64,000 nt of DNA from Mytilus trossulus (lineage: Eukaryota): positions 54,808,001 through 54,872,000 of the forward strand of contig NC_086382.1 of NCBI RefSeq assembly GCF_036588685.1, in the 5' to 3' direction. This document shows, piece after piece, positions 2,006 to 26,498 of this stretch. Positions within the stretch are counted from its first letter, which is position 1, and each line of letters opens with the position of its first letter. The notes under the pieces were generated by a model. It was not told the DNA's origin, ran no database searches, and saw only the letters and a program-made list of their open reading frames with translations. A program made the translations under genes and the position numbers.

Positions 2006-2580
2006 AAAGGAGTAAGGACCGATTTTGGCCTCAAATTTCAGGTTAATCTGACGAAAGATTTTGACCACTTTTTAAATACTTAAGTGTCTATTGATTTAAA
2101 TCAATTAGTTTATGTGAAAGATTTTAACTGATTTAGTCATTAAAAACGATCCGATTTAATCTGAAATATGAAAATTCTACCATATATGCCAAAAATGTCA
2201 CTTTTCAGATGTTTTTTTGTCAAAAGTGAAAGTGGCCGCATCCGTGTTCATCCTCAACCTATATATATGTTATGTATTATCATAAAATACAACTTACATT
2301 TCAATTTTTAGGATGAACACGAATGCGGTCACTTTCGTTTCACACGAAAACCGTCTAAAATTTACCTTAAATGCTAGAATTGTGAATATTTCAGTAATTT
2401 CGCATGACTTCGTGGTGCTAGTACCCGATATATGTGCACTGTATTGTAAAAAAGCAGCCCATATTTATGTAGCAGAAGCATTCTCCTGTCCAATATATAA
2501 TTAAAAGTTTACATTTTAACAATTTGGTAAAACTGCTATATTTTGGAACCAAAAAGTGGTCTTACTGGACCTACTCCTTT
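2006..2580 (+). mobile_element. Non-autonomous TIR DNA element (Kolobok/Crypton-like ends), copy 1
   Basis: Begins AAAGGAGTA(A)GG, ends CTGGACCTACTCCTTT (inverted termini); high similarity to 2889-3423; non-coding. Confidence 0.7.
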
Positions 2581-2888
2581 CCATCTCAAGCGAGTAGCAT
2601 GATATGAAAATTATCACAAAAAGAGATGAAAGGAAAAATTCACAAAATAGCGATAATGTGTCTTATAATAGGTATCAACCATCCGATTTGGTGTATTCAG
2701 TTATATTTATAGTATTTATAACGTTACCCATCTACACCAGTCGAAAGTTTTGCCATCATAAAGCAAATGTGAGGTGAGTTGTATACTTTTATTGCAAATG
2801 AAATCGACGTATTCCTTTTTGTTTTGAAATTAAGGGGATATCCTGTTGAAAAACAAACTGAATTAATGCAACACTCCCAGGTATTTTC

Positions 2889-3423
2889 AAAGGCGTAGGT
2901 CCGGCAAGGACCGATTTTGGCCTCAAATTCCAGGTTCATCTAACGAAAGTGTCTATTTCAATTGATTCAATTAGTTTATGTGAAAGATTTTAACTGATTT
3001 AGTCACTAAAAACGTTCCGATTTAAGCTTAAATATGAACAATCTATCAAATATAACAAAAAAACGTAACTTTTCAGATGGTTTTTGTCAAAAATGAAAGT
3101 GGCCGCATCCGTGTTCATCCCCAACCTTTATATATGTTATGTATTATCATCAAATACAACTTTCATTTCAGTATTATGAATGAACACCAATGTGGACACT
3201 TTCATTTAAGACGGAAACCGTCTAGAACTTAACTAAAATGCTAAAATTGTGAAGATTTCAGTAGTTTTACTTTATGATGCTAGTACCCGATATGTGTGCA
3301 TTATATGAACGCCGTAGATTGACCTTTAATGGTTTACTTTTAAATTATTATTTGGATGGAGAGTTGTCTCATTGGCACTCATACCACACCTTCCTATACC
3401 CAAAAAGGGGTCTTAGTGAACTA
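2889..3423 (+). mobile_element. Second copy of the 2006-2580 element, 3' part disrupted by another repeat (about 3308-3398)
   Basis: AAAGGCGTAGGTCCGGCAAGGACCGATTTTGGCCTCAAATT start and body align with copy 1; terminal remnant CCAAAAAGGGGTCTTAGTGAACTA at 3399-3423. Confidence 0.7.
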
Positions 3424-4080
3424 AGTATATTCTGTATTCTGTAAACACAACATGTTTTTGAGCAAACATTAATGTACACATGAAACAAACGTTGAGAAGC
3501 CAAGGAAAATATAATCGTCAAACAAAAACCGGGCGAAAGAGGACAGTCAAAATCGTAAAAGGCGACATTAATTTAGTACAGTTTAACTGCAAATTGATAT
3601 ATATATATATTTTCAAAAAATGCACCGCATGTATTGCCTCAAATTGCGTATTATCAACTCTGGTCTAGACTCATCAGATTGAAACGAATATAGGCATGTT
3701 AAGAATAATACATGGTAAGTAATGCGTCACTTGATAAAAACAACATGGCATTATAGATTTTTTTTTTAAGTTACGCCCGGACAACAGATGTCAGTAAATT
3801 ATATATGGAGCTTCGTTCCCATCCAATTTAGAATTTACTGAACCCACAAAAATCCTACAAGGTCACACTGTGTTACTTCTAATATGTGCGTGATGATAAA
3901 ATTGTATAGAAAAAAATTAATGGAAAAAGAAATACTTGTTTCAAGCCAGGAGTTAGACATTTGTTTTCTATTCGTTTGATGTGTTTGAGGTGGTGATTTT
4001 ACTTTTTGATAAAAGCTTTTCCGTTTTGAATTTTCCTTGGTGTTCAGTATTTTTGTTAGTTAACTACTCTTTGCTTTAAT

Positions 4081-5380
4081 ATCGTCTATTCAGTGCCCGC
4101 ATAAGGTGTCTCTCCAAATGGGGCTGCACACAATCCTGGATTTATTTTGGTAGATCATATTTCAGAAAAGCGTTACCGATTTCGATTTTTTTTGTTCGAT
4201 AGAAACAATTAAATATTGGTGTGCTGAATGATAATCTATCAAAATAAGGGGGAAATTGCCTCAAATAGTTTAAGGTTGATGTACCCTTCTTTAGCCATTT
4301 TTGTACAAATTTTTCAAACCTCAATTGTTTCAAAACTACATATATAATGAATAATAGAGATAGGCCATTTAGTACATATTCCAAGGGGAAACTTGATGCA
4401 CAGCATTATTTTTTTACTGTTTCATTGCATTTGATAGGAAAAGAGGACTTTGTGGCAAAGAAATCAAGATTTTTGTAGAAAATCCACAGCCTTTAATACA
4501 GAGATTTTTGTTATAAAATTTGAAACATAAATTACTCACTTTGATGTGCTAGTGTTTATTTTTTACACAAAGTTGTAAGCAACCTGTTAATTCTAAAACA
4601 CTTCGTGCTGATTCACTAAAGTCGAGCGCACCCTAAAAGGTGTACTTGATTTTGGCTATATTTATATTTGTTTTAACCAATAAATACATTTATAAACTTG
4701 TTTTAAGGAAATCAATGCTAGCACTGCATGCAATATTCCTATATCTATCAGTCTTCAAATTGCCAAATATGAGAGTACAAGGATAAAGACTGTGGATTTT
4801 CTATAAAAATCTTGATTTATTTGCCACAAAGTTATCTTTTTCTATTAAATGCAATGGCACAGTAAAAAATAATGCTTTGCATCAAGTTTCCCCTTGGAAT
4901 ATGTACAAAATGGCCTATCTCTGTTATACATTATATCTGTAGTTTTGATACAATTGAAGTTTGAAAAGTTCGTACAAAAAATGGGTACAGAAGGGTACAC
5001 AAACCTTAATTATACTTCCAGAATAGTGTCGCAGGCTTTTTGAGAAAATATTATTTGTTCTTTTTTGTTACAAGAAATTCATACATGTAGTGTGCCAAAA
5101 CATAAGTGTTCAGTTGCACAAACACATTACACAGAGCAGCATGATATTTGTAACACATTCATCATTATACTAGCCCGACATCCAACCCTTTGATTTAACC
5201 GGTATAAACGTTCTTGATGGAGGTACTAATCAGAAAGATCACACAATTCTCTGTTTCCGCTTTGATATTACTTCAATCATTAGTGAGTAAAATGAAACTG
5301 GCTATGATGTAATTAGAATAGGAAGTTGTCGGAAAGAGAGATGGCGAATAACCGGAAGCTTGAGTCAAATCTGTATATAA
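4081..5380 (+). pseudogene. Decayed intronless reading frame of unknown family, split by the Kolobok-like element
   Basis: Removing 4274-5009 rejoins one frame of ~188 codons with 6 internal stops (..GVSPNGAAHNPGFILVDHISEKRY..GEIASNSLIILPE*..PDIQPFDLTGINVLDGGTNQKDHTILCFRFDITSII..). Confidence 0.4.
4274..5005. mobile_element. Kolobok-like non-autonomous element (MITE) with ~225-bp TIRs and TTAA TSD
   Basis: TTAA|GGTTGATGTACCCTTCT ... AGAAGGGTACACAAACC|TTAA; 4274-4497 is the reverse complement of about 4785-5005. TTAA TSD with RR..YY ends is the Kolobok pattern. Confidence 0.85.
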
Positions 5381-5908
5381 AACTGCTTGTTGCGTGACAT
5401 GTTTCTATATTTGTGCTAGTTGAACGTATTGATTATACCCAACCCAGGATGTAACAATAGAGTTGTTAATAAGGTTTTGCCTTAAACGCTCTTTATAGTT
5501 TTTAAACAATTAAAAAGCGTCAGTAACTATTAATATACGTTACATAAACTCGTTTAATATCATACATTTCTTTAATAGATTTAGGTTTATCAACGATTTC
5601 TCCTTATTTTATCGATTTTTTTAATCTGTAATCAATCAATTATATTTTTTTTTATATATTATGCATAAACATGTCATTTAGAAAAGTTAAATGCAAATAA
5701 TATATTAATATATGCCAACTTTGGCTTAAATCTCAAGAACGCTTATATTCCGAAACAGAGGACTAAAAAAGAAATCATTTTTGCGTTACTGTGGTAGTTG
5801 TACAACGAGTTTTGTTTGCGTTCTACAATAAACTTACATTTGAGGGAAATGACGAGTATAGTAACCATTTACGTGTATACGACACGGGTTTTTTTTTAAA
5901 AGAAAAGG

Positions 5909-6728
5909 TATGACGCGGAATTAGGGTCATAAACATTGAATTTAGCATATGCTTAAATGATTTTAGCATAAGCTATATTATAATTTAGCATATGCTAAAA
6001 TGATTTTAGCATAAGCTAAATTCATTTAAGCTAAACTCATTTTAGCATAAGCTGAATTCATTTTTGCATAAGCTAAAATCATTTTAGCATATGCTGAATT
6101 GTTTAGGTTATACATAAATCTTGGCGCGGAATTAAGGTCATAAATACTAATATTCAGCTTATGCTTAAATGATTTTAGCTTATGCTAAAATGAATTCAGC
6201 TTATGCTTAATTAATTGTTTTATCCAATCAAAATCTCGCTTTCTTAACTACTTTTATACTTTTCTCTGGTAAAAAGGAATAACCACTTTTCTCAAATAAA
6301 TAAATGTTTTTCTTAATGTAACTACATATATAAATAGGGAGACTGTGGCCCTCTGCCATCCCGCTAAATCCGTCTCTGTTACCAATTAAGCCGATTTTGT
6401 ATGAGAATTTAAGTCTCGCATGTTGGGAAATTTATTTCAAATTCATGACACGTGTTTTTTGTTTAAACAATATTCTATGTGTAATTGTGTATACATTGTA
6501 TTCGATCTTTTAACCCTTAACGGTGCTATAAATATACAATGTGTACATTTTTTACCGATTGCATAAATGAAAATTCCACTACTGTGTGGGGTTAAAAGGT
6601 CGAATACAATGTATACATTAAAATAGATGACAAGTTGAGATTGGAACAAATGATGGGTTTTTTTAATCTTGTACAATGATTTAGCACTATCAGAAATACA
6701 GGTCAATTTTTATTTGAAGCACAATTCC
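5909..6728 (+). repeat. Left arm of element A, with 21-bp palindromic subrepeats
   Basis: Tandem TTAGCATAAGCTAAAATCATT-like units; terminal motif repeated internally at about 6123 (GGCGCGGAATTAAGGTCATAAA). Confidence 0.9.
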
Positions 6729-6916
6729 TTTTGCAGTTTTCGAGTACTTCTGTTTTTGATCGTTCTTAACTTTTGCCAAAATATAACTGATACCTGAATC
6801 TAACGGTTAGAGATGTGCCTGTGAGGCCAAGTAAATTTTCAGCTCAATTGCATTTTTAGTTTTAGATCGAGTTATGCTGTTTTCAATTAAGGCATTCCCA
6901 ATTATTTAGCGATATA

Positions 6917-7084
6917 CAGGGGCGGATGCAGGAATTTTCGAAAAGGGGGGGGGGGTGCTAACCCAGGGCAAAAAGGGGGGGGGGGGGGTTGCAAAACATA
7001 TGTCCCGATACAAATGCATTGATCGGCAAAAATAAAAGGGGGGGTGCGCACCCCCGGACCCCCCCCCCTCTGGATCCGCCACTG
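6917..7084. mobile_element. GC-rich MITE with CAGGGGCGGAT(G/C)CAG TIRs
   Basis: CAGGGGCGGATGCAG ... CTGGATCCGCCACTG; poly-G/poly-C tracts; related copy at 21667-21830. Confidence 0.75.
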
Positions 7085-7416
7085 ATATAGGGGGGTTGGG
7101 GGGAAGGGGGGGCTTGTCAATTCGAGATAAATTCAATTCGAATTAAATGTACATTAGACAGTGACTGAAAACCAAATGCCAAATATGATATGGTGAGCTT
7201 CCCGGCATTTTTATGACTTTCATCTAGAATATTGAAATGTTAGCAATTATAGGCAACCATACGGCCTTGAATAATGACAAAAACCAACACCGAATGGTCG
7301 GCTATATTTTTTTTTTACAAAACATCAAAATTAAGTCGACAGACATGAACTATCGACAACCACAGGCTATGCATATTGTATGTGCCTGTCCCAAGTTATG
7401 AGCCTATACAATATGC

Positions 7417-7689
7417 ATGCAAATAGAGCGGTCAACCCATCCTTGTTCAAGGTGCTTTGAAATACCCAAGATATATGTGTATGACACAGAAATGTTTTAC
7501 TTCAATAAAATGTAGGATTAATCACTTACAAGTGTCATATTTAAGGGTGTATTTTTTCACGACCTATGTGATGTACCACGATTTGGTGGTATGACACATG
7601 AAGAAGACATTATTGTTAATAAAATGAATGTGACTTTATTCATTTGTAATAATGGTTATTTCAAGCATTTCTGTCAAGTTTTGTCATAA
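7417..7689 (+). pseudogene. Decayed Cys-containing reading frame inside element A
   Basis: MQIERSTHPCSRCFEIPKIYVYDTEMFYFNKM*D*SLTSVIFKGVFFHDLCDVPRFGGMTHEEDIIVNKMNVTLFICNNGYFKHFCQVLS*: 2 internal stops in 91 codons; coding-like sequence continues to about 7960 with frameshifts. Confidence 0.4.
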
Positions 7690-8242
7690 TCAGTTCAATA
7701 GTAGTTTGAAAAAAATCTAGTATAATGAAAGACGACATCTACAAATTCCAAACCAAGACGCATCAAGATAGATTATAGTGTGGACAAATAAAGGATCAAA
7801 ATTAATATTTATCACATCTGCCTACAAACAGTTGAATATGATACACAAGAAAATTTTAGAAAGATATATACCACTAATGAACCTTTTTTGTCTCGTTTAT
7901 CATTTTGGTCAACTTATTACTCTAATTTTCTCAAAATTTCAACTTTTCAGGCCAATGAATAAAAATGATGGGATAACTTTTATTCATTTATGATAGAATT
8001 ATTATATGAAATGAGAAGTTGAAGTAATTTAGCAGAATGAACAAAACAATATAAAAGTTCACTGTCTCCAAGTAGGTTTCAATAAGTCCTTACGTAAATA
8101 TTGAATTTACGCCGCGTTCCACAGAGGGACATTAAAGGGTTCTCTTTCAGTGAATAATTTGTTGTTACAACATTAAGAATAATTTCATTTACTTATAACT
8201 TTATATTCATTTAAGTATTTTCTATGAAAATGTTCTATGTTC

Positions 8243-8712
8243 GAGGGTATCACCAGCCCAGTAGCCAGTACCGAAAGGAAAATACGGATTGTTTGTGTTA
8301 TTAAAATTTGCTGTAACAAAATGATAGAAATTATTATAAATTAAGGAATGTATCTCCCTCAAGCAAAGCTCTGATTCCTTTCACGGATTTGGCTATACAT
8401 TTTGGACCTTTTGGATTATAGATCTTCATCTTTTATATAAGCCGTTTGAATGGTTTTACACTAGTAATTTTGGGGCCCTTTAAAGCTTGTTGTTCGGTGT
8501 GAGCCAAGGCTCCGTGTTGAAGGCCGTACTTTAACCTATAATGGTTTACTTTTTAAATTGTTATTTGGATGGAGAGTTGTCTCATTGGCACTCACACCAC
8601 ATCTTCCTATATCTATTTGGATTTCAAATATTTTAGCCACGAGCATCACTGAAGAGAAATGTATTGTCGAAATGCGCATCTGGTGCAGGAAATTGGTACT
8701 GTTAATGTTATT
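8243..8712 (+). mobile_element. Retrozyme-like monomer (second family), interrupted by a common interspersed repeat at about 8443-8615
   Basis: Shares GAGGGTATCACCAGCC.AGTAG with the 26.5-27.3 kb units and ends in a hammerhead motif followed by GGTAC. Confidence 0.6.
8643..8686 (+). ncRNA. Type I hammerhead ribozyme motif (one stem II mismatch)
   Basis: Stem I GCATCA/TGGTGC, core CTGAAGA and GAAA, stem II GAAA/TGTC with an A.G mismatch, palindromic stem III ATGCGCAT, AUC cleavage triplet. Confidence 0.75.
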
Positions 8713-9424
8713 TAAAAATTCTACCATAGTAGAAAATGAAAAATAAGGAGAAACAGCCCATCCCCCATAAAAAACAAAACAAAACAAAAAACGGTTACAC
8801 GCCATTAGTCCGACAACCCATTAGTCCGACAACCCAATAGTTTGATTGAACCTTTCTATTGTTTAGAATATTCACAAGATGATCACATTGATAAACGTTT
8901 AGGAGACTTGATTTCCTTATTTTTTTCATAAAATGACACCCTTTAACATTTAAGAAATATTTAGTCACATGTTAGGATTTTCATGTTGTCACTTGTTCAC
9001 GTATTATGTGCTATTGTAGACTAGTTATGTTTTATAACATTTTTTATTGCGCTGAACCCTTCCACCGAAACCGAACTGAATAAAAAAGCTGCAATGCTAA
9101 GGTATCATTTGTGATTTCAATTGCAACCAATTTTAACAAGAGTAAAACATCCTATATGCAAAAACAGTATTTGATTTTTATCCATAGCTTAGATAGTAAA
9201 AATGTTATCATAAAATGATATATGCCTCAGGGAACAGTTAGTATCTCAGGGACTGCTAATGTGCTTTCATCCTTGCAACCATTCAATAATAGTACAAACG
9301 TATGACATTCATGGAACCTATTTTTTACGAGAAATTTAATGTTTTAAATTGAACTAAAGATTTTACAAATTTTATGTTTTCATCAGAGTATTATTTGTTA
9401 CATCAATAGATATAAACAATTCAC

Positions 9425-10197
9425 CAAAGTTTCATGGACACATTAACGGTTCTCGAGAGGTAGAGCGGACACAATTTGTTAAGAACAGCAAACGGATGGA
9501 TTGGCCGACGGACGGACCTTTGACACACACTCTGGTGTCATGTACAAACCGACAGACAGACGGTCAAGTATAAAGTATGAAATATTAACGGTTCTCGAGA
9601 GGTAGAGCGGACAAAATTTGTTAAGAACAACGAACGGATGGACAGACCGACGGACTGCCCTTTGACCTAGGATGCATACATTATGACACATTCTCTGGTG
9701 TTGGTTAATATATATGTTAAGTTAAAAATGTTTGTCAGGTATAAAGTATGAAATAATAACAGCTGTCCTCTCAAAATATAGTGTGGATCAAATTTGTTAG
9801 CGATGGAAAGACCAACAGACAGACGGACCTTTGACCTAGGAAGTTGTACATACATCATGACTCACCCTCTGATGTTGGTTAAAATGGATGTCAAGTATAA
9901 ACTTGGAAATCATAACGGTTCTCAAGATATAGAGCGGGCACGATCTTATCCACAGGACACAGGGTTGTCAACTGAAACCAAAGTTTGTTTTACCTTGACC
10001 TTTGACCTAGAAAGTTGTACATACATCATGACACGCCCTCTGGTGGTGGTTAATAAACATGTAAAGTATAAAGTATGAAATCATAATGGTTCTCTAGATA
10101 TGGAGCGGACACAAGGTTAAAGTGTTACGGACGGACGGACGGACGGACGGACGGACGGATCACTATAGGGCGATCCGCCTAAAGGCGGGGCCCTAAT
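9425..10197 (+). mobile_element. HINE/pearl-like element: diverged core repeats, (GGAC)n microsatellite, 3' hairpin
   Basis: Recurrent ATAAAGTATGAAA..AACGGTTCTC..GAGCGGACA units, (ACGG)n at 10127-10159, hairpin GGGCGATCCGCC-TAAA-GGCGGGGCCC. Confidence 0.75.
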
Positions 10198-10591
10198 TAT
10201 CTTTATAACACCGCAAGCCTCATTCACAATCGAAGCCAAAACAAAATAGAAAAAAACGACTAGCACATTGATATCAAATGACAGTCAGTATCAAACCATG
10301 TACTACATAATTCAAAAGAACTTACAATATAATCATCTTTTTTTCCCCAATATAAGAGCCTATTTATAAATAACATAGCTGAATAATGATTCAAAGTCTG
10401 TATAAGCTCAAGATAATTTAAAGTTAAAGGTACGAACCATTTGAATTAAGGAGGCAGTCTTAGATATTTGAGGGAAAACAAATGACTCTGATTTTTGTCT
10501 TCAACAAGTTCTGGCTGAACTAGATTAAAAACAATAATCTTGCCCACTTTTTTGCTATTAAAACAGAATTTTCCAACAGAATTATTCAGCA

Positions 10592-11056
10592 TTAAATGAA
10601 CATGATTTTTTTTGTGGCCGTGGTTTGCATGTCTGACAGGAATGTCTGTTTCGTCGAACTAATATGTTGAATACTTTTTTCAAGACCAGACTGCAACCTG
10701 TCTGCTGAGTGTGGCCGTATTGTCTCCATTTGTCGAACGTCATTCATAAATTCGTTGCCATAAAACTCATACGTTGCCTTTTGGTTGCTTTGGAACACCT
10801 CACTTCCCTTGATTGTGTTGAGTGTAACAAATCAATCAAACATTGGGGTAAAAATTGCTTGATTGTCTTTTTTTAACTCTTGTCGGTCTTATTGTAAATT
10901 CCATTGAATAGCTAGGTGTATAATATCTTGTTTACAACAAGAAATCTGTGAGGTTATGATAACGTAACTATATTTGTAACCGGCGAGAATTTTCCTTGTC
11001 TATTTTTTACTGACAAGTCCCACATCAAATTTATCAGTACATAGCTTTGAATCCAT
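10592..11056 (-). pseudogene. Decayed intronless ORF inside element A, unknown family
   Basis: ATG at 11056 to stop at 10592 in one frame, 154 codons with 3 internal stops: MDSKLCTDKFDVGLVSKK*TRKILAGYKYSYVIITSQISCCKQDIIHLAIQWNLQ*DRQELKKDNQAIFTPMFD*FVTLNTIKGSEVFQSNQKATYEFYGNEF... Confidence 0.55.
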
Positions 11057-13206
11057 ACTATCATTTTATAAAAGACAAATAATAGGGAGAATACATGATC
11101 GAAAATGTCCAACCCTTACGATTTACAGCAACTACAAAATGAACATGCTCCGTGTAGAGATTTGTCTCAATCATACCACATCTTTTTATTTTAGCATTTA
11201 AAGAAATTCCTAGTCCTCGTTTGCTGAGTGATCAAAAAGTTTATTTGCATGCAGAAATTTAATTTCTAGGATTACCATAATCAGTTATCTACGTGGCGAT
11301 GGTCGTTACTTCTCTTTGTACACCGGCTTATTTATAATCGATTTTTTTGTTGTTGCTTATTATGAAAAAAAAACATACTTGATGCACATAAGGAATTATC
11401 ATTTCACTATCTCACTTTTGTTAATGATTGAACAAAAAAGTCATAATCTAAATTGTTTATGTATTTCATAGCTAGTGCCCCTTTAAGCAATTATATTTTT
11501 AGTACATTAATTTGGTGCATGGGATGAAATCATGATAGGACCATGAAAAGATTTATCTCACCTTGACAATATGTTTATTGGTCATTGAATTATCAATTAA
11601 ATGTAGTACTTGTAGAAATAAACTCAATTTTATAAATACTGAAACAAAGAAAACATTTCAGTCTTTGTATGATAATTATCTATACAATGTAGATAAAAAA
11701 AGAAGATGTGATATGATTGCCAATGAGACAAGTTGACAACTCTCCAGAACAGATCAAATGACATAGAAGTTAACAACTATCAGTCATCATATGGCCTTCA
11801 ACTATGATCAAAGCCAATACCGCATAGTCAGCTATAAAAGGCCCCAACATGACAAATGCAAAATAATTCAATAATTCAAATGAGGAAACTAATGGCCAAA
11901 ATTATTTACAAAAGAAAAAAAACGGAAAACATATTAACAAACGAAAACCACTGCAAGGCCATAACTACCATTGAGGCAAGTAAGGCGCCTTACTAAAATT
12001 TCGACACTGATTTTTTTTATATACATATATAAATAAAATAGTCATTTGTTGTTCTGTCTCAACCTCAATTCTTCCTGGTTATAACTCAGCATCTATTTTT
12101 CAGATGTCATTGTATCATAAATTACCTTAAGTTGTGGAAATCGATTTAATAATGTTTACCCTCTACGTTATTTTTAACCCAAAACGCAGTAATGTCGCAA
12201 GTAATGTAGGAAGGAAAAAATGGGACGGAATTACATGTATACGGTTTACCATAAAAATAAACAAAATTTCAGTTAGATGTACAGAACTTTTATCATAGGA
12301 TGTTTTTGGAAAGAAAGTATGTTTCCAGTTTTTGACGAAAAAAATACTTTGTTATTATGGAAAGCCAACGGGGTCAAAATTCTTACTTCGTAACTTGTCA
12401 ATTTGTTACTTGTAACTATGTGATTTGTCAATTTGTATATTGCTGTTTTGTAACTTGTCGATTTGTTAAATGTCGATTTGTATATTGTCTGTTTGTATAT
12501 TAATGTTTTGTAACTTGTCGATTCGTGAATTGTCAATTTTTTATAAATATTGATGTTTTGTAACTTGTCGATTTGTTAATTATATAAATGTCGATTTGTA
12601 TATTGTCTATTTGTATATTAATGTTTTGTAACTTGTCGATTCGTAAATTGTCAATTTGTATATTGATGTTTTGTAACTTGTCGATTCGTTAAATGTCAAT
12701 GCGTGATTTGTCAATGTGTGAAATGTCATCGTTGTATTATGCTAACGATATTTATGACGACAGATGGCGCTCAGTTTCTTCTTCGTTTTATAAGCCTCCT
12801 GTAAGTAAAAGCACCTCCATATGGAATATATATACCTAAGTAATTTTAATCAATCAATTACAGCAAATGCGTCTAAAAGAAAGCAAAATAAAAATTGCAT
12901 GTTTACAGGACCCCAGTTTTATTTTATTTACTGACGTGGACTTTCGTTCGAGAACGGAAACTATAAAAATACACCCGACTAGCCAAGTCCCTCCTTTTAT
13001 ATTTATTTTTATATTCTTTTATCTTTTTATTATTTACGTAATCATAAAGTGTTTTTTTTATTCATTTATCTATTCAAACTTTTGCTCTTTAAAATTTCTA
13101 TCTAACTTTATTTATCATTCTAAATTATGTCAATTACCACATGGTAAAAATATAAATTATGTAATGCCCAAAAAGGCGCAAGCCAGGGCCGACCGTGCAA
13201 GGGTTG

Positions 13207-14642
13207 TATAGCCAGTCAAGGTCGTTAAAAACTTCCATTTTTTGTCAAGTCCGTCGACGTAATCGATCTCTCCTACTAGACCTTTTCAACATCTCTCGAC
13301 ATCTACAGTTGAGAACGACTACGACAGGTAAAATGTGAAGGGTCGTCTCAAAATTAAAAAAATAAATCAGATCATTATTGATTTTAATGCTTACATTGAC
13401 AATGACAAAACTTTCTTATAGGTTGACAAGGGCGTCACATGTCTGTTAATTTTTCGCCTTAGATGCCTCTATAATGTACTCAATACTTTGTATCATTTCA
13501 ATTCACTTATTTGGTGTTTCACTTGAATTCTGTATTCACCAATCACTGCTAAAATGTTGTTACATTGAAACGAGTGGTCAATTATATTTTTTTTCACAAT
13601 TTATCAAGGAAAAACTTCAACTCGAGCAAGATATCTTGAAGCAGAGAAGACCGTCGTTTATAAAAAAAAACTAAAAAAAACCTGAAGTGATATTATCCTT
13701 CAACTTAAAAAGTCAATATGTAAGTATCCCTCTAGAAATTGAATATGTACATCAACTAAGGTGAAGATCGGTGGAAAAACACCAAGTTGGTCGTGTTCAC
13801 AAGAGTGTGATACGGACGGAGGGTCCATTATTCTTTTTCATAAATTTTGAAAAAAGTCACAAAAGCTTTTACGCCAACAAATTAAATCGTTATTGGCATG
13901 CGGTAAATATTTGGCGAAAGACTCACATTATCACAAAAGTGAAGAGAAAATGGGAAAGGATTCAGAATGATTGAAATAGTTTTTTAATCAATTCAACATG
14001 AAATGTCGTGCATATAAATACGAAATAAGAATATATGACAGAGACATATGTATGGTGGACGGTTGGGACGTTTCCCCTTTTCGTGTTTTCGGGGTAATCC
14101 ATAAATCAAGAAATTGAGAAATCAGGAAATCTAGAAATCAAGAAATTGGAAAATCGAGAAATAGAGAAAGCAAAAACGCGAAATCGAGAATAGATTTCAC
14201 GTTTTCGTGTTATCTCTTTGGTGTTTTGGCGTTTTTGCTTTCTTGCTTTCTCGATTTCTCTATTTCCCGATCTTATCTATTTCCCAATTTCCCCGGCCCA
14301 CTTCTCAATATATCTCGATTTCTCGAATTCTAATTTCGCGTTTGCAAAGTGAAAGGAGAAGTCACGAAAACGCGAAATAAATGGCCACATTCGGCCACTG
14401 TACATACATTTATTTATTTACTTGGTTGATATATATTCTTAAGCTATATAGTCAAAACAGTATAAAACGGCCAATACAATATGTTACGTAATGATAATCA
14501 TGTTTTTTTGTCTTTGAGACGAGCCATCCATTTTACCTGTAAACTGTAGGTGTCATTAGTCGATGTCGAGAGATGTTGAAAAGGTCTAATTGTGAGGTAA
14601 TTGAAATAGTCGTTGGTCCGTGGAATATAACGACTGGATTAT
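13207..14642. mobile_element. Diverged inverted-repeat pair (element C), nested in B
   Basis: TAGACCTTTTCAACATCTCTCGACATC (about 13277) versus GATGTCGAGAGATGTTGAAAAGGTCTA (about 14562); ACAGGTAAAATG versus CATTTTACCTGT; ends CCAGTC/GACTGG; no clear TSD. Confidence 0.6.
14051..14402. mobile_element. MITE with IS3EU-type ends (element D), nested in C
   Basis: CATATG|TATGGTGG ... CCACTGTA|CATACA; ~9-bp GAAATCGAG-like units in the left half, reverse complements in the right half. Confidence 0.7.
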
Positions 14643-15502
14643 TCAGGTAAATACAATAAGGAGATGTGGTAATAAACCGTATAATTGACAATGAGACAAC
14701 TATCCACCAAAGCGAAGTTCAAATAAAGTCGATGTAAGCAAGTATAGGCAACCTACGGCCTTCAACAATGAAAAAACATAATACCAAATAGTCGGCTATA
14801 AAAGGCTACATCATTACTGGAAAACCCGGGTTCTAGTAATAAACGTATATATTAATCCTAAAATGCTACTGATTATCGGTTCATTTAATTCTGACAGGAG
14901 GGGAAAGGGCTGACATATATATATTGATACACATGCCTACTGAATTTTTTCTGGTCAAGAATCTTAAAAATTGCCGCTACCAGATTCCCGTTCTATGAAA
15001 ATTTACAACCAAAAAGATAAAAATATTCACGAGTCCCTCGATCGCAACAGTTGCTTATTAACGCCTAGTATTCAAGATATGATCCCCACCCGGTGACACA
15101 CCTCCTTATAGCCCGGCAACCTTACCAAATCTTATATTTTGTCTATCGGATCGTTAATTAACCGAAATGATTTACGATGTTAATCAATAAAGCTAAAAGA
15201 TTTTGAATGTGCATGTCATGTAAAATAAAAAAAATCATTTGCAATGAATTCGTAACAATATAATCCTAACTCAATTGACAAACCATGCTGTATTCCGCCT
15301 GGCTCTTCTGTTCAGCAGTCAACCATGATCCCAGGTCGGATTGTTGTCTCTTTGACACATTCCCCATTTCCATTGTCAATTTTAAATAGGTGACGCGTGT
15401 AGAAAAAAATAAACAGTTTCATAGTTTTACGATCATGGTCATTAACAAACTATCCAGAGGAAAAACCTCCTAATATTTTTCGATCTAGTACCATGATCAT
15501 TC

Positions 15503-15945
15503 AAGATTTGTACCTGTATCTGTAGGAAAACGTTGTGGATAAAAAAAAACGGCTTTAATACAACGATAGACAGAGCGCCGTCGATGTATTGACGATGCAC
15601 GAGAGCAGTTTCTGAACGACTGTCAACTATCGCGGTTTGTGCACTACAGTTTCTTCAAGGTGGTTCCACTCGAATACTGTTTTTACGAAAAATAAGTTGG
15701 AAATATTATGGTATTTTGCTCGTTGAGATCTCAAAACACTTTTTGAAGTTCTTGATATGCAATTTTTTCAATACGTTTCTTGACTGATAATTGTTCAATC
15801 GGGCACTTGGCAGCAATTGATTGTCCTTTTTTGGACGAGCTTTTTTTTTATTTTCTGGCTCTATAGCACTGAAAAACTTTCTTATCAGGAATCCTAGTGT
15901 TAATTTTGACTCTTTGACTACGTTGCATTTTTGGAAATATTTTCT
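15503..15945 (-). mobile_element. Degenerate 3' fragment of a CR1-group LINE ORF2 plus tail
   Basis: Minus strand encodes ..NVVKESKLTLGFLIRK.. and ..NLFFVKTVFEWNHLEETVV.., matching the CR1-type KKANxxLGFLxRN and SFFPxTxxxWNxL motifs; CAGATA-like tail. Confidence 0.7.
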
Positions 15946-17633
15946 GACCTACAAGGAACAGGTCCGTATAGAGACATTAACCAGAGGTCTGTGTTACAAA
16001 CTATATCACAAACGTTTACTTTTAATGTCTGAGTAAATTTGATTCGCATTTACTGGATTGTGTCAGGATGTATTCTGCAATATTGAGAGATAGTTAGTGT
16101 TTGAACTGAAAACTCGTATCCAAGGCTTGTAAAATATCAAGTGGTTTTAGATTTTAAATATTTTATTTGCGTGTTTTATATGGAATAATTGCTTACCAAA
16201 TGAACAGTAAAACGTTTTTAAGATTTTAAAGATAACAAGGAAAGTGTTTGAACAGTAAATGCTATTGCGAGGGCAGGAGTGTTTTAATTATAGACTATTT
16301 AACCCTATGTTATATGGAGATATAATAGTGATCCGGCTATGAACGATTGGACTGTGTAATATATATAGTTAACTCGAGAGTTAACCATGTTAACTACGTT
16401 TACATGGTGATGGATTAGTCCGCATGCTGTATATATGTTACTGTTATAAATTATAATAACTACGCATACTGATTTTATGAGTGCCCCGTGTGTAAGGGTT
16501 AGGGTGCAAATAAGGGTGCAAATTTGAATTACGCTATAGAAGCGAAGCTCCTGCTAGAGGAGGAAGATAAAGACTAGGTTACAGGTAACAGGTAGTCCAA
16601 TTTAGGTCCTCGTTTAGTTTTCTGGTTCCTTTAGATTTTATTACAAAATAGTGCATATTCAATACAGTTTTAATAAATAGTATACATTAATCAAGTAACT
16701 CATTTGAAAAGAAAACCATTCAGTTTGTCTTTGCAAAGTTCAAATATGATATTATAAACTGTGACATCTGTTATCTTCATTACTCAGGAGCCAAATAAAT
16801 AAAGATTGTTCGTCTATTTGCTTCTTGTATTAAAACATCATTAGAGAATTGCATTCTTTTCTGAAATTTTTATATTGAGATTATAATATTAAGGAATAAT
16901 GAGTGTCAAACCATTTCTCCCATTCATGATACATTTGGTTCCAAATTTGATACCCAGGACACTATTAGTAAAAATTTTCCAGCACCGTCTTATATTTCAT
17001 GTATTTAGTCTTATTTTGACCCGGTTAAATATTAAGTATAAATTTCCTGCCAAGTGACAGTAATATATTTGCGAAGTTGATAAGGAAGCCCGTTCGAGGA
17101 CAGCGACACATCTATGATATCCCATCCCAGGTTTGGTGACCAGTACAGTAAACTATAAATAAAAGCGGGACCCTGATATACATGCTATATAAAACAAACA
17201 ATGTATTTATCTATTTGTTTTCTTTTTTATAAATGTGCTTTACATAATTGATTTAAATTACATTGGTATATATTCCATATGCCGGTGCTCCTACTTACAG
17301 GAGGCTTATACACCGTAGAAGAAACCGAGCGCCATCTGTCGTCATAATGATCGTTAGCATAATACAACGATGACATTTCACACATTGACATTTCACACAT
17401 TGACATTTAACGAATCGACAAGTTACAAAACATCAACATACAAATTGACAATTAACGAATCGACAAGTTACAAAACATCAATATACAAATAGACAATATA
17501 CAAATCGACATTTAACAAATCGACAAGTTACAAAAGTTGAAAACAGCAATATACAAATTGACAAATCACACAGTTACAAGTTACAAATTGACAAGTTACG
17601 AAGTAAGAATTTTGACCCCGTTGGCTTTCCATA

Positions 17634-17846
17634 TGTTTTTGACCCTGAGAAAAAAAAATGTTTGTTTCACCCTCAGCTGTCACTATATGTAATGCTAAAA
17701 TTGAAAGAAAAAAATGGTTTTCGACTTGTCGCCAAAAAAATATATTGTCTTTCGCCGAAGGCGAAAAAAAAGTTTGTCCAGAAAAACAACTCCATAGCCC
17801 ATAACCCCCCCCCCCCCCCCCAAGAAAATCAAATGGTTGCCGCCTT
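17634..17846. mobile_element. Half of a MITE ending GAAAATCAAATGGTTGCCGCCT, apparently the target of element B
   Basis: Same TIR and internal TTCGACTTGTCGCCAAAAAA motif as 23823-24022 (opposite orientation). Confidence 0.7.
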
Positions 17847-17919
17847 TTATCTGACATTCTGTGCAAGTAAATCAAAAAATGTTTATCCTTGATTAATTTG
17901 AATAGAATTTTATTTTCGT

Positions 17920-18440
17920 GACACATGATTTGTCGAAGTACACCTCTTCAATTACTTGAACCTTGGCTTGCGAATTATTTTGGGAATACTTTGTTATCTG
18001 AAGTATCTTGCTTTAAATTGTTTAACTTCTGATATACATTTTGAAATATAGTAATCTGCTACTGGATATTCCGTAAAAACCGCTAATATAATCACGGGTT
18101 TTATTTATTCAATGAAACGGTTTTCGTGGGTGTTTGGGATTAGTCTTTCAATTACCTCCATTTCAGGCACAAATTTATATTGACGAAAAGTTCCGGCTTC
18201 GCAAGTACAGGAATTACTTTACATATGACAGTTATAACATGTATAGCAGGACAAATCTCGAAGTAAAACAATACGTGGACTTGTATTAAGTCTTTTAATA
18301 TTGGTGAATGCACCTTACTGAAGTGACGACTTTAAATGATCTATTTCGGAGTACTTCGGCAACATAAATTAAAATTCGCACTTTACATTTAAAGGACTGT
18401 CTTGGTGTCTCCAATTTGTCTTTTCAAAAGTTGAACGTTA
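17920..18440 (-). pseudogene. Decayed Cys-rich reading frame inside element A
   Basis: One frame, ~175 codons, about 6 stops: ..FMLPKYSEIDHLKSSLQ*GAFTNIKRLNTSPRIVLLRDLSCYTCYNCHM*SNSCTCEAGTFRQYKFVPEMEVIERLIP.. Confidence 0.4.
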
Positions 18441-18909
18441 TGCATGTAATGAGGTTTTTTTCCCATTTCACCATTCTTTTAAATAAATTGTTAAAAGCTA
18501 TAGACGATTAATGAAAATTGCAAAATTTAACCTGTTTCGAATCTCTGTCCCTGACCGGAGTCTATAGCAACATGCACTATTCTTGTAACGTTGGGCATCC
18601 TTTTTTTTCCCGCATAGCTTTGTTATTTTAATCCTCAAATATATACTAAATGTTACTTAGTATATGATCAAGACATATAAAACATAACTAAAAACATATA
18701 TTTGATTTGTTTAAATACTGGTTCGTGTTTAACACTGTGCGGGACAAATTTGCCATTCCGGTATCGGCAAATCTGACTTTGTCGGTTTACAAGATATCAA
18801 AAAAAAATATTTGCCCAGTGATAGATTATTGAAAATTTAAAAAAAAAAAGCCATATGATCCAACTTTTCACTGTTGTCACTCTTGTCACTGCAGCTGATT
18901 AAAAGTACA

Positions 18910-19300
18910 TTTCCCATGGGAAATTTGAAAATTCCCATGGGAATATTAGAATTTCCCTTGGGAACATTGAAAGTTCCCATGGGAAAATTTACTTTTCCCA
19001 TGGGAAGTTTAGAGTTCCCATAGGAACTTTAAAGTTCCCATGGGAACATAAGTAAATTGTTTGTTCCCATGGGAATTTCAAAATTTCCCAAGGGAAACTT
19101 TAAATTTCCCAAGGGAATTTTTCTTCCCAAGGGCACTCCTTTTCTTCCCATGGGAAAAACTTTTCCCATGGGAACAATATTTGTTCCCATAGGAACAATA
19201 ATTCTTCTCATGAGAACAATACTTCTTCCCATGGTAACAATAATTGTTCCCGTGGGAACAATATGTTTTCCCATGGGAACAATGATTGTTCACATGGGAA
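18910..19300. repeat. ~21-bp-period array of the palindrome TTCCCATGGGAA
   Basis: Roughly 18 phased copies; accounts for the three overlapping ORFs at 19029-19461. Confidence 0.9.
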
Positions 19301-19499
19301 GTGATATAACTAAAAAGAAAACATAAAAAAATCCTCTCATTGCATGAGTGAAGCAATTTCACAAAGCGGACTAAGTTATTATGGGTATAAATATTTCTCT
19401 GTATTTTAATTGTAGATATATATAATTTTTGTCTTGGCATGCTCAATTGAAAGTAAATCACTATGTGTCATAGTGCAAATCGAGTTTCAAAAAATTAAC

Positions 19500-19672
19500 T
19501 ACTATTAATTCAGAAATTATTGCTGTTTTTATTATTGTGAAAATAGTGACAGGGTTATAATCACAATAATATACACTTGCATATTGAAATTTTTATGACC
19601 TCAACAGGATTATTCTAAATTTTGCACACAAAAAAATGATGAAAGCTAGCAATAATTTCTGAATTTTCAGTA
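19500..19672. mobile_element. Short TA-flanked MITE (Tc1/mariner-like)
   Basis: TACTATTAATTCAGAAATTATTGC ... GCAATAATTTCTGAATTTTCAGTA. Confidence 0.65.
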
Positions 19673-20189
19673 TATAGTTTTGCATATATAGCTTTCATAC
19701 AATGTCTTATGTTTATCCATTTGAATGATTTTGTGTTTTTTTCATGCAGACATTTAAATGTTGATAGGTCTTGCTCATTGTTGACGGCTGTTCAGTCACT
19801 GGCTGAAAATACCGTTATCTCTGGTTTTTAGTTGTCTCATTGGCAATCACATACCATATCCTTACTTAATTTCAACACTTCTTAATTTAAGTTATGTGCA
19901 TTTGAGAATATCATTTTCAAAAAGACAAAACATTACATTTTGTATTACAAATAAGGCACTTGTGTTTTAATATTTCACCTTTCACTGAGATAACACCATC
20001 AAGTAAAATGTATGAAACAGATATTTTGCAGAAGAATCATTAAAATGAAAATAAAATCTGCAGATGACATAAATGAAGTTTACGATGATTATTAGAAAAT
20101 TAAGACACGTCAGTTCAAACTCTTAAAGCCTATTTTCAGATAATAAATATTAACCCCCCCCCCCTAACTTAACCCAAACGTTGCATAAG

Positions 20190-20700
20190 ATTCAAACGTA
20201 CTTAACAGACTTTTAAAAATTAGGGGTAGGCATGCTAAATGTATATACTCTTTAGACCAAAACTCGGACCTTTGGTGAAAACTAACCATCAGTTGATCCA
20301 CCTGGGACTTTTGGCCCATAAGACCTTTGAATATTACCTATAAAATGCACCTAGTAGGTAAATGGGTATTGACGAAAGGACATTTTGACACTCTTTAAAA
20401 AATCTGGGGTAGCCATGTTAGACCGTTTAGACTGGACCTTTTGAAGACAAACCATAACATATCTATTTTGGAGCTATGGTGAAGACAAACCCTAAAATGT
20501 AAAATGTCCATCCTTAGCCTTAAGGTCCATTGCACCCTAGACCATTACCTATCATTTGTACCTAGTGGTTAAACATGATTAACCGAAAGGAACTTTTGTC
20601 AGATTTTTTAAAATTAGGGGTAGGCATGTTAGACCCTGCAAACATAATTAAGTTTGGACCTACCAGGAGTTGTACCACCTGGACCTTTTGGACTATTGGA
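20190..20700 (+). repeat. Diverged ~190-210-bp tandem repeat (about 3 units)
   Basis: TTTAAAA(A)TTAGGGGTAGGCATGTTAGACC-like motif at about 20211, 20394 and 20604. Confidence 0.6.
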
Positions 20701-20745
20701 ACAGTGCTTTGGTTTTTTTATATTTGGTGTAAGTAAACAAAAAGT

Positions 20746-21253
20746 AACAAGAATATGTCCACAGTACACGGATGCCCCACTCGCACTATCATTTTCTATG
20801 TTTAATGGACCGTGAAATTGGAATAAATTCTCTATTTTGGCATTAAAATTAGAATGATCCTATCAAAGGAAACATGTATACTAAGTTTCAAGTTGATTGG
20901 ACTTCTACTTTATCAAAAACTACCTTGACTAAAAACTTTAACCTGAAATTTGCACTATCATTTTCTATGTTCAATGAACTATATAATTGGGGTCAAAACT
21001 CTAATTTGGCATTTAAATTAGAAAGATCATATCATAGAACACATGTATACTAAGTTTCAAGTTGATTGGACTTCAACTTCATCAATACATACCTTGACCA
21101 AAAACTTTAACCTGAAGCGGGACAGACGGACGAACGAACGGACGGACGGACGAACAGACGGACGGACGAACGAACAGACGGACGGACGAACAGACGGACA
21201 GACGCACAGACCAGAAAACATAATGCCCCTCTACTATCGTAGGTGGGGCATAA
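20746..21253 (+). mobile_element. pearl/HINE-like element, near full length
   Basis: AACAAGAAT start, subterminal ATGCCCC/GGGGCAT inverted repeats, two ~170-bp core repeats, GGAC/GAAC microsatellite 21120-21210, 3' hairpin. Confidence 0.85.
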
Positions 21254-21666
21254 ACAAATTCAATTGGTAGGAAGAAATCGCTGTAACTATACAATAATTT
21301 GTCAATTTTTTGTCTTGTATTTAATATGTGGATGATGGTGAACCTTAAAGAAACTCTGTTAGTCCTAAATTTTATTTTTATTGCAAATTTCCGATGGTCA
21401 AAAACCTTTGGATCACAACTTTTCAAAAACCTGAATTGTAGAATACAAATGACGTTAAGCACGATATTGCGTATCATATGGTAACGTCAAAGTTTTACGT
21501 TTTACGGCGATTACCGATTATTTGTGATAAGTTTTGTATTTCGCTTGCAATTTTTGTTTTGCTTTTCAATACGTATACTACTTATAATGTTTTGTTGTAC
21601 CGAATATGCATAGAATATTTCCCAATGATAGTAAAGTAAGCAACAAACAAAAAAATGTATCATATT

Positions 21667-21830
21667 CAGGGGCGGATCCAGCCATCTTAAAAAGGGGGTC
21701 CCAACCCAGGACAAAAGGGGAGGGGGGTTCTAACTATATTTCCCCATTCAAATGCATTGATCGGCAAAAAAAGGGGGGTTCCAACCCCCGTACCCCCCCC
21801 CCCCCCCCCCCGTCCACGGATCCATCAATG
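21667..21830. mobile_element. GC-rich MITE related to 6917-7084
   Basis: CAGGGGCGGATCCAG start, shared AAATGCATTGATCGGCAAAAA core, degenerate right TIR. Confidence 0.7.
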
Positions 21831-22450
21831 GCATTTGGGTAATGCATAGGTATATAAAATGAGAAGATATATATGGTAGGATGAGTGCCAAGAAAATTCT
21901 ATCTGAGGAACTATATACAGATGATCCACCATAAATAGCGTACCCCGAATCGACAACGTTGAAATTTTACGAACTTGCAAGACATTTCATTCCTTAAAAA
22001 ACGAAGTCGTTTCGACTACGCAAGTTATCAAAACGTATGTAGCTGTTTTGTAAAGTTAAAACACAATTATGGAAAAGCAATATTTAGCATGCAACTAATC
22101 TAAATTTTCAATAAATAACGTCGCAAATGACAATTTATTTGTAAAAAACGGCGAAATCCGACATTAAACATTTTGCAAGACATTTGACAAAGGCCGTTGC
22201 AATTTTATATGTAGTGTGAGTGCTGCAAAAATTCAATTTTGATATTGTCTATGTATGTACTTATATGTAAGCCGAATTTACACAAACAAAATATCATATA
22301 ATCTAATATTTCAAAACCTATAAATTTTGAAAACTTTTAACATCTTTTAAAATCTGACCAATATGAACACTTTTTGATTTTGCCAAAAAAACGCGTTGGT
22401 CATATCAGAAACACATATCCAGTAATATTATTATACTTTATATAGAGAAT

Positions 22451-22581
22451 AATACTTGGCAAAATTCGTATCATATGTCGTATCATCCCGAGACATCACT
22501 ATCAGCCCAAGGGCCTTTAGGCCCGAGGGATGATATTGGTCGAGGGTGATACGGCATGTGATACGGATTTTGCCATGTATT
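22451..22581. repeat. 130-bp imperfect palindrome (long hairpin)
   Basis: AATACTTGGCAAAATTCGTATCATATGTCGTATCATCC ... GGGCCT-TT-AGGCCC ... GGGTGATACGGCATGTGATACGGATTTTGCCATGTATT. Confidence 0.85.
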
Positions 22582-23822
22582 ATACGCTTTATCATATATT
22601 TCAACAGAAGGGTATTATATTATATGAACTGTTTTCTGATCCATAGCACTAAGTTACCTTCAGTTCTGCTTTTCTCTTGTTTCAAAGCCATAAAATAACT
22701 GCTCAATTATTTATACGAAGCACCTAGGTTACTTCACAATTTGCGTGCTGTTGTTTTAAAAAAAAAAATGTTTATTTTTGTATTTTTTATAGTTGCATTT
22801 AGTGTGCCAAAAAATATGATAGCTTTTGTTCGTGACGTCACATACAATATAAAAACTTGACGTTCGTGACGTTACATACCAAACAATGACGTCATTCAAA
22901 AAATTGACCTTTTTTGAGGAAATTTTTTCTTAAGCAAAAAAAAAACCAAAAAACTGACTTCATGTAAAAAAAAAAAAAAAAAAAAAGGTATGCGATACGG
23001 GTTTAGCTATGCGATACAGGGTAGGTGATACAGACTGGAAAAAACGAACCTTTATTAGATATACAAAATAGCTGTATTTTGTACTAAATATAATATGATA
23101 AATATATATATAAAGCATATCATTCATTCGAATTTTCGTGGATATAACACTATTTTGAAGAACACAAACACCTCTGCTAAAGTGATTGTGCGTATAGTCT
23201 GTTTCGTCTGACACGCATATTGTTGACGTTTTGTCAATATGTTGTCCTTATTTTAGACTAAAGTAAAATATGATTAAACAATTTGTTCTTTTTTTCAGAA
23301 TAGTATTTATCTGCCTAGTCTATGGATATAAGTTTTAAATAACTTAACTGTTATGATTTTATAGAAAAGCTGTTTATTAGTGTGGACTGGTTGTTTGCAC
23401 GGTATAGGTCCTTGATACATCGAAAATTGACGCACCCGCAGGCGTCCTTCAGACTGTTTATGACTAAATATGTTGATATGTAGTGATTGATACTTGAGTC
23501 TTAGAAGAACAAGGTTTATGTCAGTCTTAGTGCAATGATTTGGACAAACTTTCAGTTATTGTACATGTTCTCATTTTGGTGCTTTGTGTTTATAGCTATT
23601 GTCTAGATATAATGTTAGTGTTTCTTAGTGGTTTCGTACCAGTCTTTTAAGTTTATCTGTTTTCAATTGATTTTACAGTTTGTTCTTAATAAGTTGGCCA
23701 TTCACTCAGTTAAACAACGGGATCCACAGTTTTTCGTGAATGGCCGAAAAGGTCGAATTTACTATAATATCATGCACCGCTTGCTTGGATGCATTTATTC
23801 TTCCCGAGTGATTTTGCATCTA

Positions 23823-24022
23823 AGGCAGCAACCATTTGATTTTCGGGGATGGGCGATGGATTTTTTCCCCGGGCTAAGGTTGGTTTTTTTAGAAAAGAAC
23901 AATCTATTTTTTTGGCGACAAGTCGAAAGCAAATTGGTCACTTACCCCCCCCCCCCCCCCCCCTTAAACACACACACAAATAACCCACCCACCACCCCTC
24001 AGAAAATCAAATGATTGCTGTC
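23823..24022. mobile_element. MITE with AGGCAGCAACCATTTGATTTTC TIRs
   Basis: AGGCAGCAACCATTTGATTTTC ... GAAAATCAAATGATTGCTGTCT. Confidence 0.75.
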
Positions 24023-24060
24023 TGATTTCAATTTCTTGGGTCACTATGAAAACTACTAAT

Positions 24061-24992
24061 GGAATTGTGCTGCATATAAAAATTGACCTGTATTTCTGAT
24101 AGTGCTAAATCATTGTACAAGATTAAAAAACATCATTTGTTCCAATCTCAACTTGTCATCTATTTTGATAAATATACATTGTATTCGACCCTTTAACCAC
24201 ACACAGTAATGACATTTTCATTTATGCAATCGGTAAAAAATGTACATGTACACATTGTATATCTATAGCACCGTTAAGGGTTAAAAGATCGAGTACAATG
24301 TATACACAAATACACATAGAATTTCATTTAATCAACAAACACGTGTCAAGAATTTGAAATTTTGCAACATGCGAGACCTAAATATTTATACAAAATCGGC
24401 TTAATTTGTAACAGAGACGGATTTAGCGGGATGGCAACGGGCCACAGTCTCCCTATTTATATATGTATTTACATTAAGAAAAACATTTATTTATTTGAGA
24501 AAAGTGGTTATTCCTTTTTACCAGAGAAAAGTATAAAAGTAGTTAAGAAAGCGAGATTTTGATTGGATAAAATAATTAATTAAGCATAAGCTGAATTCAT
24601 TTTAGCATAAGCTAAAATCGTTGTAGCATAAGCTTAATTCATTTAAGCATAATCTATATTCATTTTAACATAAGCTAAAATCATTTTAGCAAAAGCTTAA
24701 ATCGTTTTAGCATAAGCTAAATTCATTCAAGCATAAGCTGAATTTTAATATTTATGACCTTGATTCCGCGCCGAGGTTTATGTATAAGCTAAACAATTCA
24801 GCATATGCTAAAATGATTTTAGCTTATGCAAAAATGAATTTAGCTTTTGCTAAAATGAATTTAGCTTAAGCTAAAATGAATTAAGCTTATGCTCAAATCA
24901 TTTTAGCATATGCTAAATTATAATATAGCTTATGCTAAAATCATTTAAGCATATGCTAAATTCGATGTTTATGACCCTAATTCCGCGTCATA
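24061..24992 (-). repeat. Right arm of element A
   Basis: Reverse complement of 5909-6728, with extra 21-bp units at about 24600-24745. Confidence 0.9.
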
Positions 24993-26498
24993 AAAAGGTA
25001 CAAAAATAGCAAATAAGTTGAAATATAAATAAAAACGTTAGGTTGATAATCGTTAATAACAAAAATGTCTTACTGGTCATGGAACATTGTTTTCGTCATT
25101 TGCTTTTCGACAAGAATTCCCCCTATTGTAGAAATTGAATTACCTGCAATAATTTTGAAAACACCTTTTTTATAATTTCTTCGTGCTTATGCAGGAAAGA
25201 GGAAAAATGTATGGCATTACCTGTAAAAAGAGTACATTCAAAGTGTATAGTACCAATGTTATTTCAACTGATTGGGCGGAGTTTATAAAAAGTAAAATCA
25301 CATAAAATACTGAACTTAGAGGAAAATCAATTCGGAAAGTTCATAATCACATGGCAAAATCAAATAACAAAACGCATCAAAAACGAATGGACAAGGTATA
25401 CGACTGTCATATGTCAGGAACCTAGAGTGGTTGTATGTTTTCAAATTTAAATGTTTTTGTAATGTCATCTGAAAACTGTGATGTTGCAGACCGTTTTTTG
25501 TCATTGTTTGTTAAATTCAATCAAATTTTTTGACTCGAACAATTCAAAAATTAGCAAATGCTAAAGACACCTAACAATTGCTTGAAACCATACATGATCG
25601 TTGCCATCTAACAGAACTTATTGAAATATTGATCTTAAATTCAATGCTCGTATACCAAAGATTTTATTTCATATTCATATTAGGATACGTAATATAGCGG
25701 TATGTTCTTGTTATTGACGTTGGCTCAAATGTCGCTATAACCATTCTCAAATGATTACGTAAGGTGACTTATTAATCTCTGTGTTCCCTGTTAAGAGTTT
25801 TCTCACTGGTTGCTATATCACATCTTCTTTTTTTATATCATGAAACATTATCTATAATCAGTTTCACAAAAACTCGTATGACTTAAAAAATCAGTTTACT
25901 GTGTTCAACTTATTGCTTTTGGGCACTGATAATATAAAACTAAACTTTTACTGCTCAAACTGAAACATTTGTCTTTTTACTAAATCTTCGCCGCATGGTC
26001 TTTTCTAATTATAGTTCGTTTTAGTGTTAAATGTTTTGGAAATCATTAGTTACTATGAAGAGTAGTAATCAGTGTTCAATAATAATATGCTCTCTGAACA
26101 TCTTTTTTATTTTCTGTTTCAATACTTTTGTATTGCTCCCGATAAAATCCAAGACACCACCTTTTTTCTTGATTTATATGTTAGATGTTTTTTTCTATAG
26201 TTGAATGATCGTGTTTTCTAACGGTTGTAAAGCTATTTTTGTCTCTTGAGATACCATATTGTCTCACAACTACAACTCATCATTGTTTCTGTCAATTTCT
26301 ATCACAAAATCTAACTGCATATTCTAACTTTTGTTTTGAAATTGGTCTGGCATCATTTAATCTTTTTGATAATGTTATAAATAGACTTTAATTCTACATT
26401 TGCCTGTAATATCTCTATGCAGATTTGATCAATTTTCCTCATAGATATTTTAACACCTCATTTTTTACAATTGAGTGATGTTTCATCGGCACTCATAC

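Follow-up and report, generated by a model that had tools for sequence, protein, structure and literature searches.

A 64-kb stretch of the Mytilus trossulus genome (contig NC_086382.1, positions 54,808,001 to 54,872,000; hereafter the window, with a GC content of ~30-37% across its whole length) harbors two large inverted-repeat elements, A and B, the second lying inside the first. The interpretation that we favor, with a probability of about 0.62, is that A and B represent distinct non-autonomous, cut-and-paste DNA transposons of the IS3EU/GingerRoot type, both with a foldback shape, and that B landed in A by chance, without targeting. That both are real elements follows from a strict scan of the window and from their 6-bp target duplications, which stand far above the chance levels set by shuffled sequence and random pairs. 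The scan, which demanded TAYR ends, a complementarity of at least 16/20 and a duplication of at least 5/6, returned A and B along with four AT-rich or (TA)n pairs, six in all, as compared with 0, 0, 0, 1 and 0 in five shuffled controls. Among 2 million random pairs of 6-mers drawn from the window, agreement at 6/6 occurs in 0.06%, at 5/6 or better in 0.9% and at 4/6 or better in 6.0% of the draws; the duplications of A and B score 6/6 and 5/6, respectively.

Structure of elements A and B

Element A spans positions 5909-24992 (19.1 kb, or 13.8 kb without B) and fills 30% of the window. Its TATGA..TCATA ends are bracketed by a perfect duplication, AAAAGG, at 5903-5908 and 24993-24998 (both on the forward strand). 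The left arm (5909-6752, forward strand, 844 nt) comprises the terminus, two arrays of a 21-bp subrepeat (5941-6095 and 6152-6210), a duplicate of the outermost 95 nt (6122-6216) and a 130-bp hairpin at 6488-6617. The right arm (24050-24992, reverse strand, 943 nt) contains 21-bp arrays at 24583-24744 and 24795-24960, and the same hairpin at 24173-24304. The two arms differ by 43 substitutions in 824 aligned pairs (5.2%).

Element B occupies positions 12356-17633 (5.3 kb). An initial annotation of the locus had delimited B at precisely these bounds, with TATGG..CCATA ends and TGTTAT/TGTTTT flanks, and all of this is confirmed; the outermost 46 nt are the same at both ends, and the flanks (12350-12355 and 17634-17639, forward strand) constitute a 5/6 duplication. 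The left arm (12356-12930, forward strand) is made up of an outer part (12356-12821), with a 15-bp array at about 12387-12730, followed by an older inner extension, and the right arm (17150-17633, reverse strand) has its outer part at 17281-17633 and its 15-bp array at 17371-17599. Divergence between the arms rises from 19/353 (5.4%) in the outer part to 23/107 (21%) in the inner one. Taken together, this step in B and the hairpin mirrored between the arms of A, itself a marker of arm growth, fit an extension of the arms by copying of inner sequence. The possibility that an arm of B is a stand-alone short element, delimited by an inner TATGG-like motif at 12821, was discarded, its flanks agreeing at 4/6 on the left and showing no match on the right.

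Further evidence comes from contigs of four public runs, aligned to positions 5600-25400 at 86% likeness; a mollusc metagenome is among the public runs in which the stretch occurs. Of 1487 differences and 6653 joints, the comparison draws on 40 and 15, respectively, together with 32 contig pieces; contig depth is not equivalent to copy number, and the 40 listed positions favor deep places. All 30 bins of the region are covered in the four runs. In run X18, one contig (record 24) aligns to 24748-24992 with 28 differences; its match breaks off at the last base of A and ~600 other letters follow, marking another A-type copy at a different site. A second contig of the same run (record 19) matches 12133-12353, with 13 unmatched letters just before B, and fits a copy lacking B. 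On the left flank of A, an error-free contig of run X1 (depth 15.2) enters the element by 25 letters only, too few to bridge it.

Superfamily assignment

In complete IS3EU families the termini are reported to be TA..TA and the duplications usually to measure 6 bp, with GingerRoot falling in the same group (PMC10045372), and IS3EU termini have been given as TAYGG..CCRTA (PMC12730594). Both A and B display TA..TA termini on inverted repeats, B fitting TAYGG..CCRTA exactly, and each is flanked, in its single copy, by a 6-bp duplication. They further resemble IS3EU/GingerRoot elements in their multi-kb size and in the foreign DNA that they enclose. GingerRoot elements are described as 3.9-12.9 kb long, with arms of 100-150 bp, and 22 of 77 copies contain host gene fragments (PMC6839031). 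The arms of A and B, in contrast, measure 0.47-0.94 kb and carry tandem subrepeats, A exceeds this size range even without B, and neither host gene fragments nor a transposase were detected in them. Across A (5800-25100), not one of the 144 stop-free frames that reach 45 aa had a Pfam match at cut-off, be it to an IS3/integrase-like DDE transposase or to a hAT domain, with the caveat that short or heavily decayed remnants would escape such a search; the lack of a transposase is expected for non-autonomous copies.

With their long arms, internal tandem repeats and non-coding middles, A and B also have the foldback shape. Galileo, Tetris and Drosophila FB likewise combine long, internally repetitive arms, extended from inner sequence, with a non-coding middle. 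The Galileo/Tetris shape is said to arise in several lineages through transposase loss and arm growth (PMC3573991, PMC4079207), and Galileo to extend its terminal inverted repeats by recruiting inner sequence (PMC3573991). These elements differ from A and B in their duplications (7 bp or 8-10 bp, as opposed to 6 bp with TAY ends) and in their affinity to P or Mutator. Foldback denotes a shape, rather than a family.

A plausible course of events can be outlined on these grounds. An IS3-like DDE transposase encoded elsewhere would have bound each pair of ends and mobilized A and B in trans, the whole unit being inserted with a 6-bp stagger. By analogy with Galileo, the 21- and 15-bp subrepeats would probably serve as extra binding sites, and the arms might have been extended through repair between them, with the inner sequence of one side copied onto the opposite one. 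B, a unit of ~5 kb with a multi-copy middle, would then have landed by chance in an ordinary repeat inside A, a 13.8-kb target, carrying two smaller elements (C and D) as passengers.

Several observations weigh against this interpretation. Neither A nor B was encountered in a second full copy, and exact-pattern scans returned no matches for the A, B or D ends in viral contigs, nor for the B end in metagenome contigs. (The single match to the D end, in metagenome contig L001, was set aside as chance: the contig has 23.5% GC, lacks a second end and does not match the window by BLAST.) None of the 15 joints listed marks an empty site of A, B, C or D, which proves nothing among a total of 6653. 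Contig depth differs 4- to 10-fold between adjacent positions within B (13828 and 13904), and in its ratio across runs the depth of D follows one position of C (0.53-0.93) and not two others (1.2-9.3). Arm divergence may be an inherited family trait instead of a clock, and the counts of duplications are tiny. The assignment of A and B to the superfamily, though plausible, is drawn from their ends. Finally, 6-bp repeats are not exclusive to IS3EU: hAT6 is another group with 6-bp duplications (PMC12730594), and the terminal direct repeats of Cryptons are 6 bp long (PMC3212892).

The last two cases raise the prospect that A and B belong to a different 6-bp superfamily, either hAT6 or the tyrosine-recombinase Cryptons, for which imperfect 6-bp repeats would be expected, with D unrelated to them. 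The imperfect flanks of B and D, the chance-level ends of D and the inclusion of TATGG among CryptonS termini (PMC3212892) speak for it. Nonetheless, Cryptons are described in the same source as devoid of terminal inverted repeats, as opposed to the long inverted arms of A and B. The duplication of A is perfect, the ends of B conform fully to the IS3EU consensus, and the differences in the ends and flanks of D can be read as mutational decay (see below), so that we regard a placement outside IS3EU as quite unlikely.

Contents of the nest and origin of the nesting

The order A > B > C > D put forward by the initial annotation holds by coordinates. C is a 1312-nt element (13277-14588) with TAG..CTA ends and is not of the A/B type. 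Its 86-nt arms (13277-13362 and 14503-14588) are 79% alike, with 12 substitutions in 82 pairs (14.6%); a wider arm was looked for and not found, and no flanking duplication exists at any length from 2 to 12. D is a 352-nt foldback (14051-14402) whose inner inverted part (14118-14291), composed of 8-bp subrepeats, is real. Its ends (TATGG..CTGTA) and flanks (CATATG, 14045-14050; CATACA, 14403-14408) read as originally annotated, but the ends, chosen by eye, pair at 8/11 and the flanks agree at 4/6. A looser scan (ends at least 9/11, duplication at least 4/6, length up to 3 kb) did not return D, and yielded two pairs in the window versus a mean of 3.3 over 20 shuffles. Hence, taken alone, the end call of D is at chance level. 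The four differences in its outer five letters and flanks can all be read as CpG transitions at two CpG sites, and D may thus be a decayed TAYGG..CCRTA element and a member of the superfamily of A and B, with deamination accounting for its mismatches. The end grammar once attributed to A, B and D alike is therefore shared by A and B (TAT..ATA, 6-bp duplications), is only possible for D and is absent from C. Likewise, among the subrepeat periods first proposed (21, 13 and 9 bp), that of A stands, and those of B and D are 15 and 8 bp. A further TATAG..CTATA pair inside B (16364-17157, 794 nt, 10/11 ends, 5/6 flanks) does not exceed what such a scan returns by chance.

Most likely, C and D, both smaller and older, were already cargo in the middle of B when B moved; as B-family cargo they would reduce the triple nest to a single event, the insertion of B into A. 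The middle of B to the right of C (14589-17149) is non-coding, with deep contig coverage in all four runs. At the seven listed positions of the middle outside C, depth in X1 ranges from 350 to 4711, as compared with 2348 in the B arm and with 15.2 in the error-free flank contig of that run, and it spans 32-489, 111-1367 and 223-11484 in the other three. Since depth there is about as high as in the arm, the middle of B appears to be family sequence, and not unique host DNA. This bears on the view that the arms came to flank ordinary chromosome at or near the donor site and moved it as a one-off composite, whose middle would differ from copy to copy; C and D would then be part of the captured host DNA, as might B inside A. 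The interior of A lends itself to such a view, for it is a patchwork of unrelated repeats (in its left part, 6753-12349, again with no coding match) over which the summed bin depth in X1 goes from 1.1e3 to 2.1e6, and run X10 falls to near single-copy depth in places (12.6 at 18438 and 18.5 at 20413). The older look of the inner elements and the host gene fragments of GingerRoot (PMC6839031) are also in keeping with it. Even so, the middle of B is about as deep as its arm at most listed positions and the lowest listed X1 depths inside A (174-261) are more than ten times that of the flank contig, which makes capture in place an unlikely account.

With regard to how B came to lie in A, the initial annotation proposed that members of one superfamily either target each other or accumulate inside a carrier. 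The carrier fits. The alternative, in which IS3EU-type transposases prefer other IS3EU-type elements and the nest was built stepwise, finds some encouragement in the presence of two, perhaps three, elements with the same type of ends in a single 19-kb nest, in the absence of clean TAY/6-bp elements from the 45 kb outside A in the strict scan, and in the location of B near the middle of A, which has a 6.6% chance of arising at random. The immediate host of B, however, is probably a different repeat family, termed here H, part of which flanks B on its right (17640-17846, forward strand) and has a second copy at 23822-23935; the alignment to this copy scores 93 for the right flank of B and 29 for its left flank (12322-12353). 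In the same manner, the host of D is C, and neither C nor H is of the A/B type.

The order of decay also runs counter to stepwise insertion, in which the youngest element would be expected innermost. From the outside in (A, B, C and D), duplications go from 6/6 to 5/6, none and 4/6, and arm divergence from 5.2% to 5.4%, 14.6% and 25%, a hint that decay is greatest at the center. Nor is the nest concentric, except for B in A: C lies 921 and 3045 nt from the ends of B, and D 774 and 186 nt from those of C. The concentric single-stranded stems once envisaged for the locus would follow from any set of nested inverted repeats, and the energies of the arm duplexes (-801, -351, -63 and -55 kcal/mol for A, B, C and D) merely restate their complementarity.

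Moreover, A offers a large target and has also taken up an unrelated polymorphic insert, E, of 666 nt, in a TATATA site (22439-23110). The joint from 22438 to 23105, at which six letters fit both sides, and hence the empty form of E in other animals, occur in all four runs. E carries a 150-nt palindrome at its left end; it was rejected as a further TAY/6-bp member given its (TA)n site and its lack of a terminal inverted repeat. When the flanks of each of A, B, C, D and E were rejoined, no copy spanning them appeared elsewhere in the window. GingerRoot target sites, for their part, are described as having no sequence preference beyond GC content (PMC6839031), and the window itself is one of a very large scan. 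Non-family hosts, inward decay, the size of A together with its insert E, and the off-center nest thus leave mutual targeting unsupported, and we consider it very improbable. In a repeat-rich genome, insertions gather in large neutral carriers, so the nest requires no targeting. At this single locus, the insertion of B into A has the look of routine stacking within a large repeat, and not of elements seeking each other.

Implications and other features of the window

As interpreted here, A and B enlarge a poorly studied superfamily by two candidate non-autonomous families, and indicate that IS3EU-like ends can bracket from 5 to 19 kb. IS3EU is listed in an oyster repeat table (PMC8268682) and bivalve IS3EU is named in the title of a reference cited in PMC11934779, where the structure of these elements is described as largely unexplored. 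No report of nested or long-armed IS3EU in bivalves was found in the literature searched, a search to which Repbase (the source of most descriptions of such families), most subscription journals and supplements were external.

Hemizygous, present-or-absent DNA is a known feature of mussels. It is conceivable, if doubtful, that mussel-type genomes harbor giant foldback IS3EU elements of 5-20 kb, which mobilize entire stretches of repeat-laden chromosome as cargo, older transposons among them, and that these create part of this hemizygous fraction. If carriage of chromosome blocks turned out to be common among A-type units, structural variation in bivalves would gain a mechanism open to testing. 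The boldest addition to this idea, that the transposases also favor landing in one another's cargo, would be surprising if true; we deem it highly improbable, and nothing at the A/B locus shows it.

Beyond A, none of the 150 longest frames (of 286) had a Pfam match at cut-off, and Rfam gave no matches within 5000-26000; judged by these searches, credible coding sequence is absent from the window. Below the cut-off, a 97-aa frame at 35095-35385 matches DUF3615 (E 8.4e-05, 23.2 bits against a cut-off of 24.8), and the frame of an 18-bp tandem array at 30987-31379 gives a match to the LED repeat.

Other repeats are found both inside and outside A. Within it, an array at 18901-19303 repeats a 21-bp palindrome (core TTCCCATGGGAA) that bears no relation to the 21-bp unit of the arms, and two elements with tandem units of ~170 bp (9400-10200 and 20783-21250), which we take to be Helentron-like, end in ACGG/GGAC microsatellites. 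Four dispersed copies of a 110-220-nt repeat, with 73-91% identity, are located at 26492-33847. To the left of A, a 740-nt element at 4270-5009, presumably Kolobok-like, has 226-nt arms (22 substitutions in 225 positions), GG..CC ends and TTAA on both sides.

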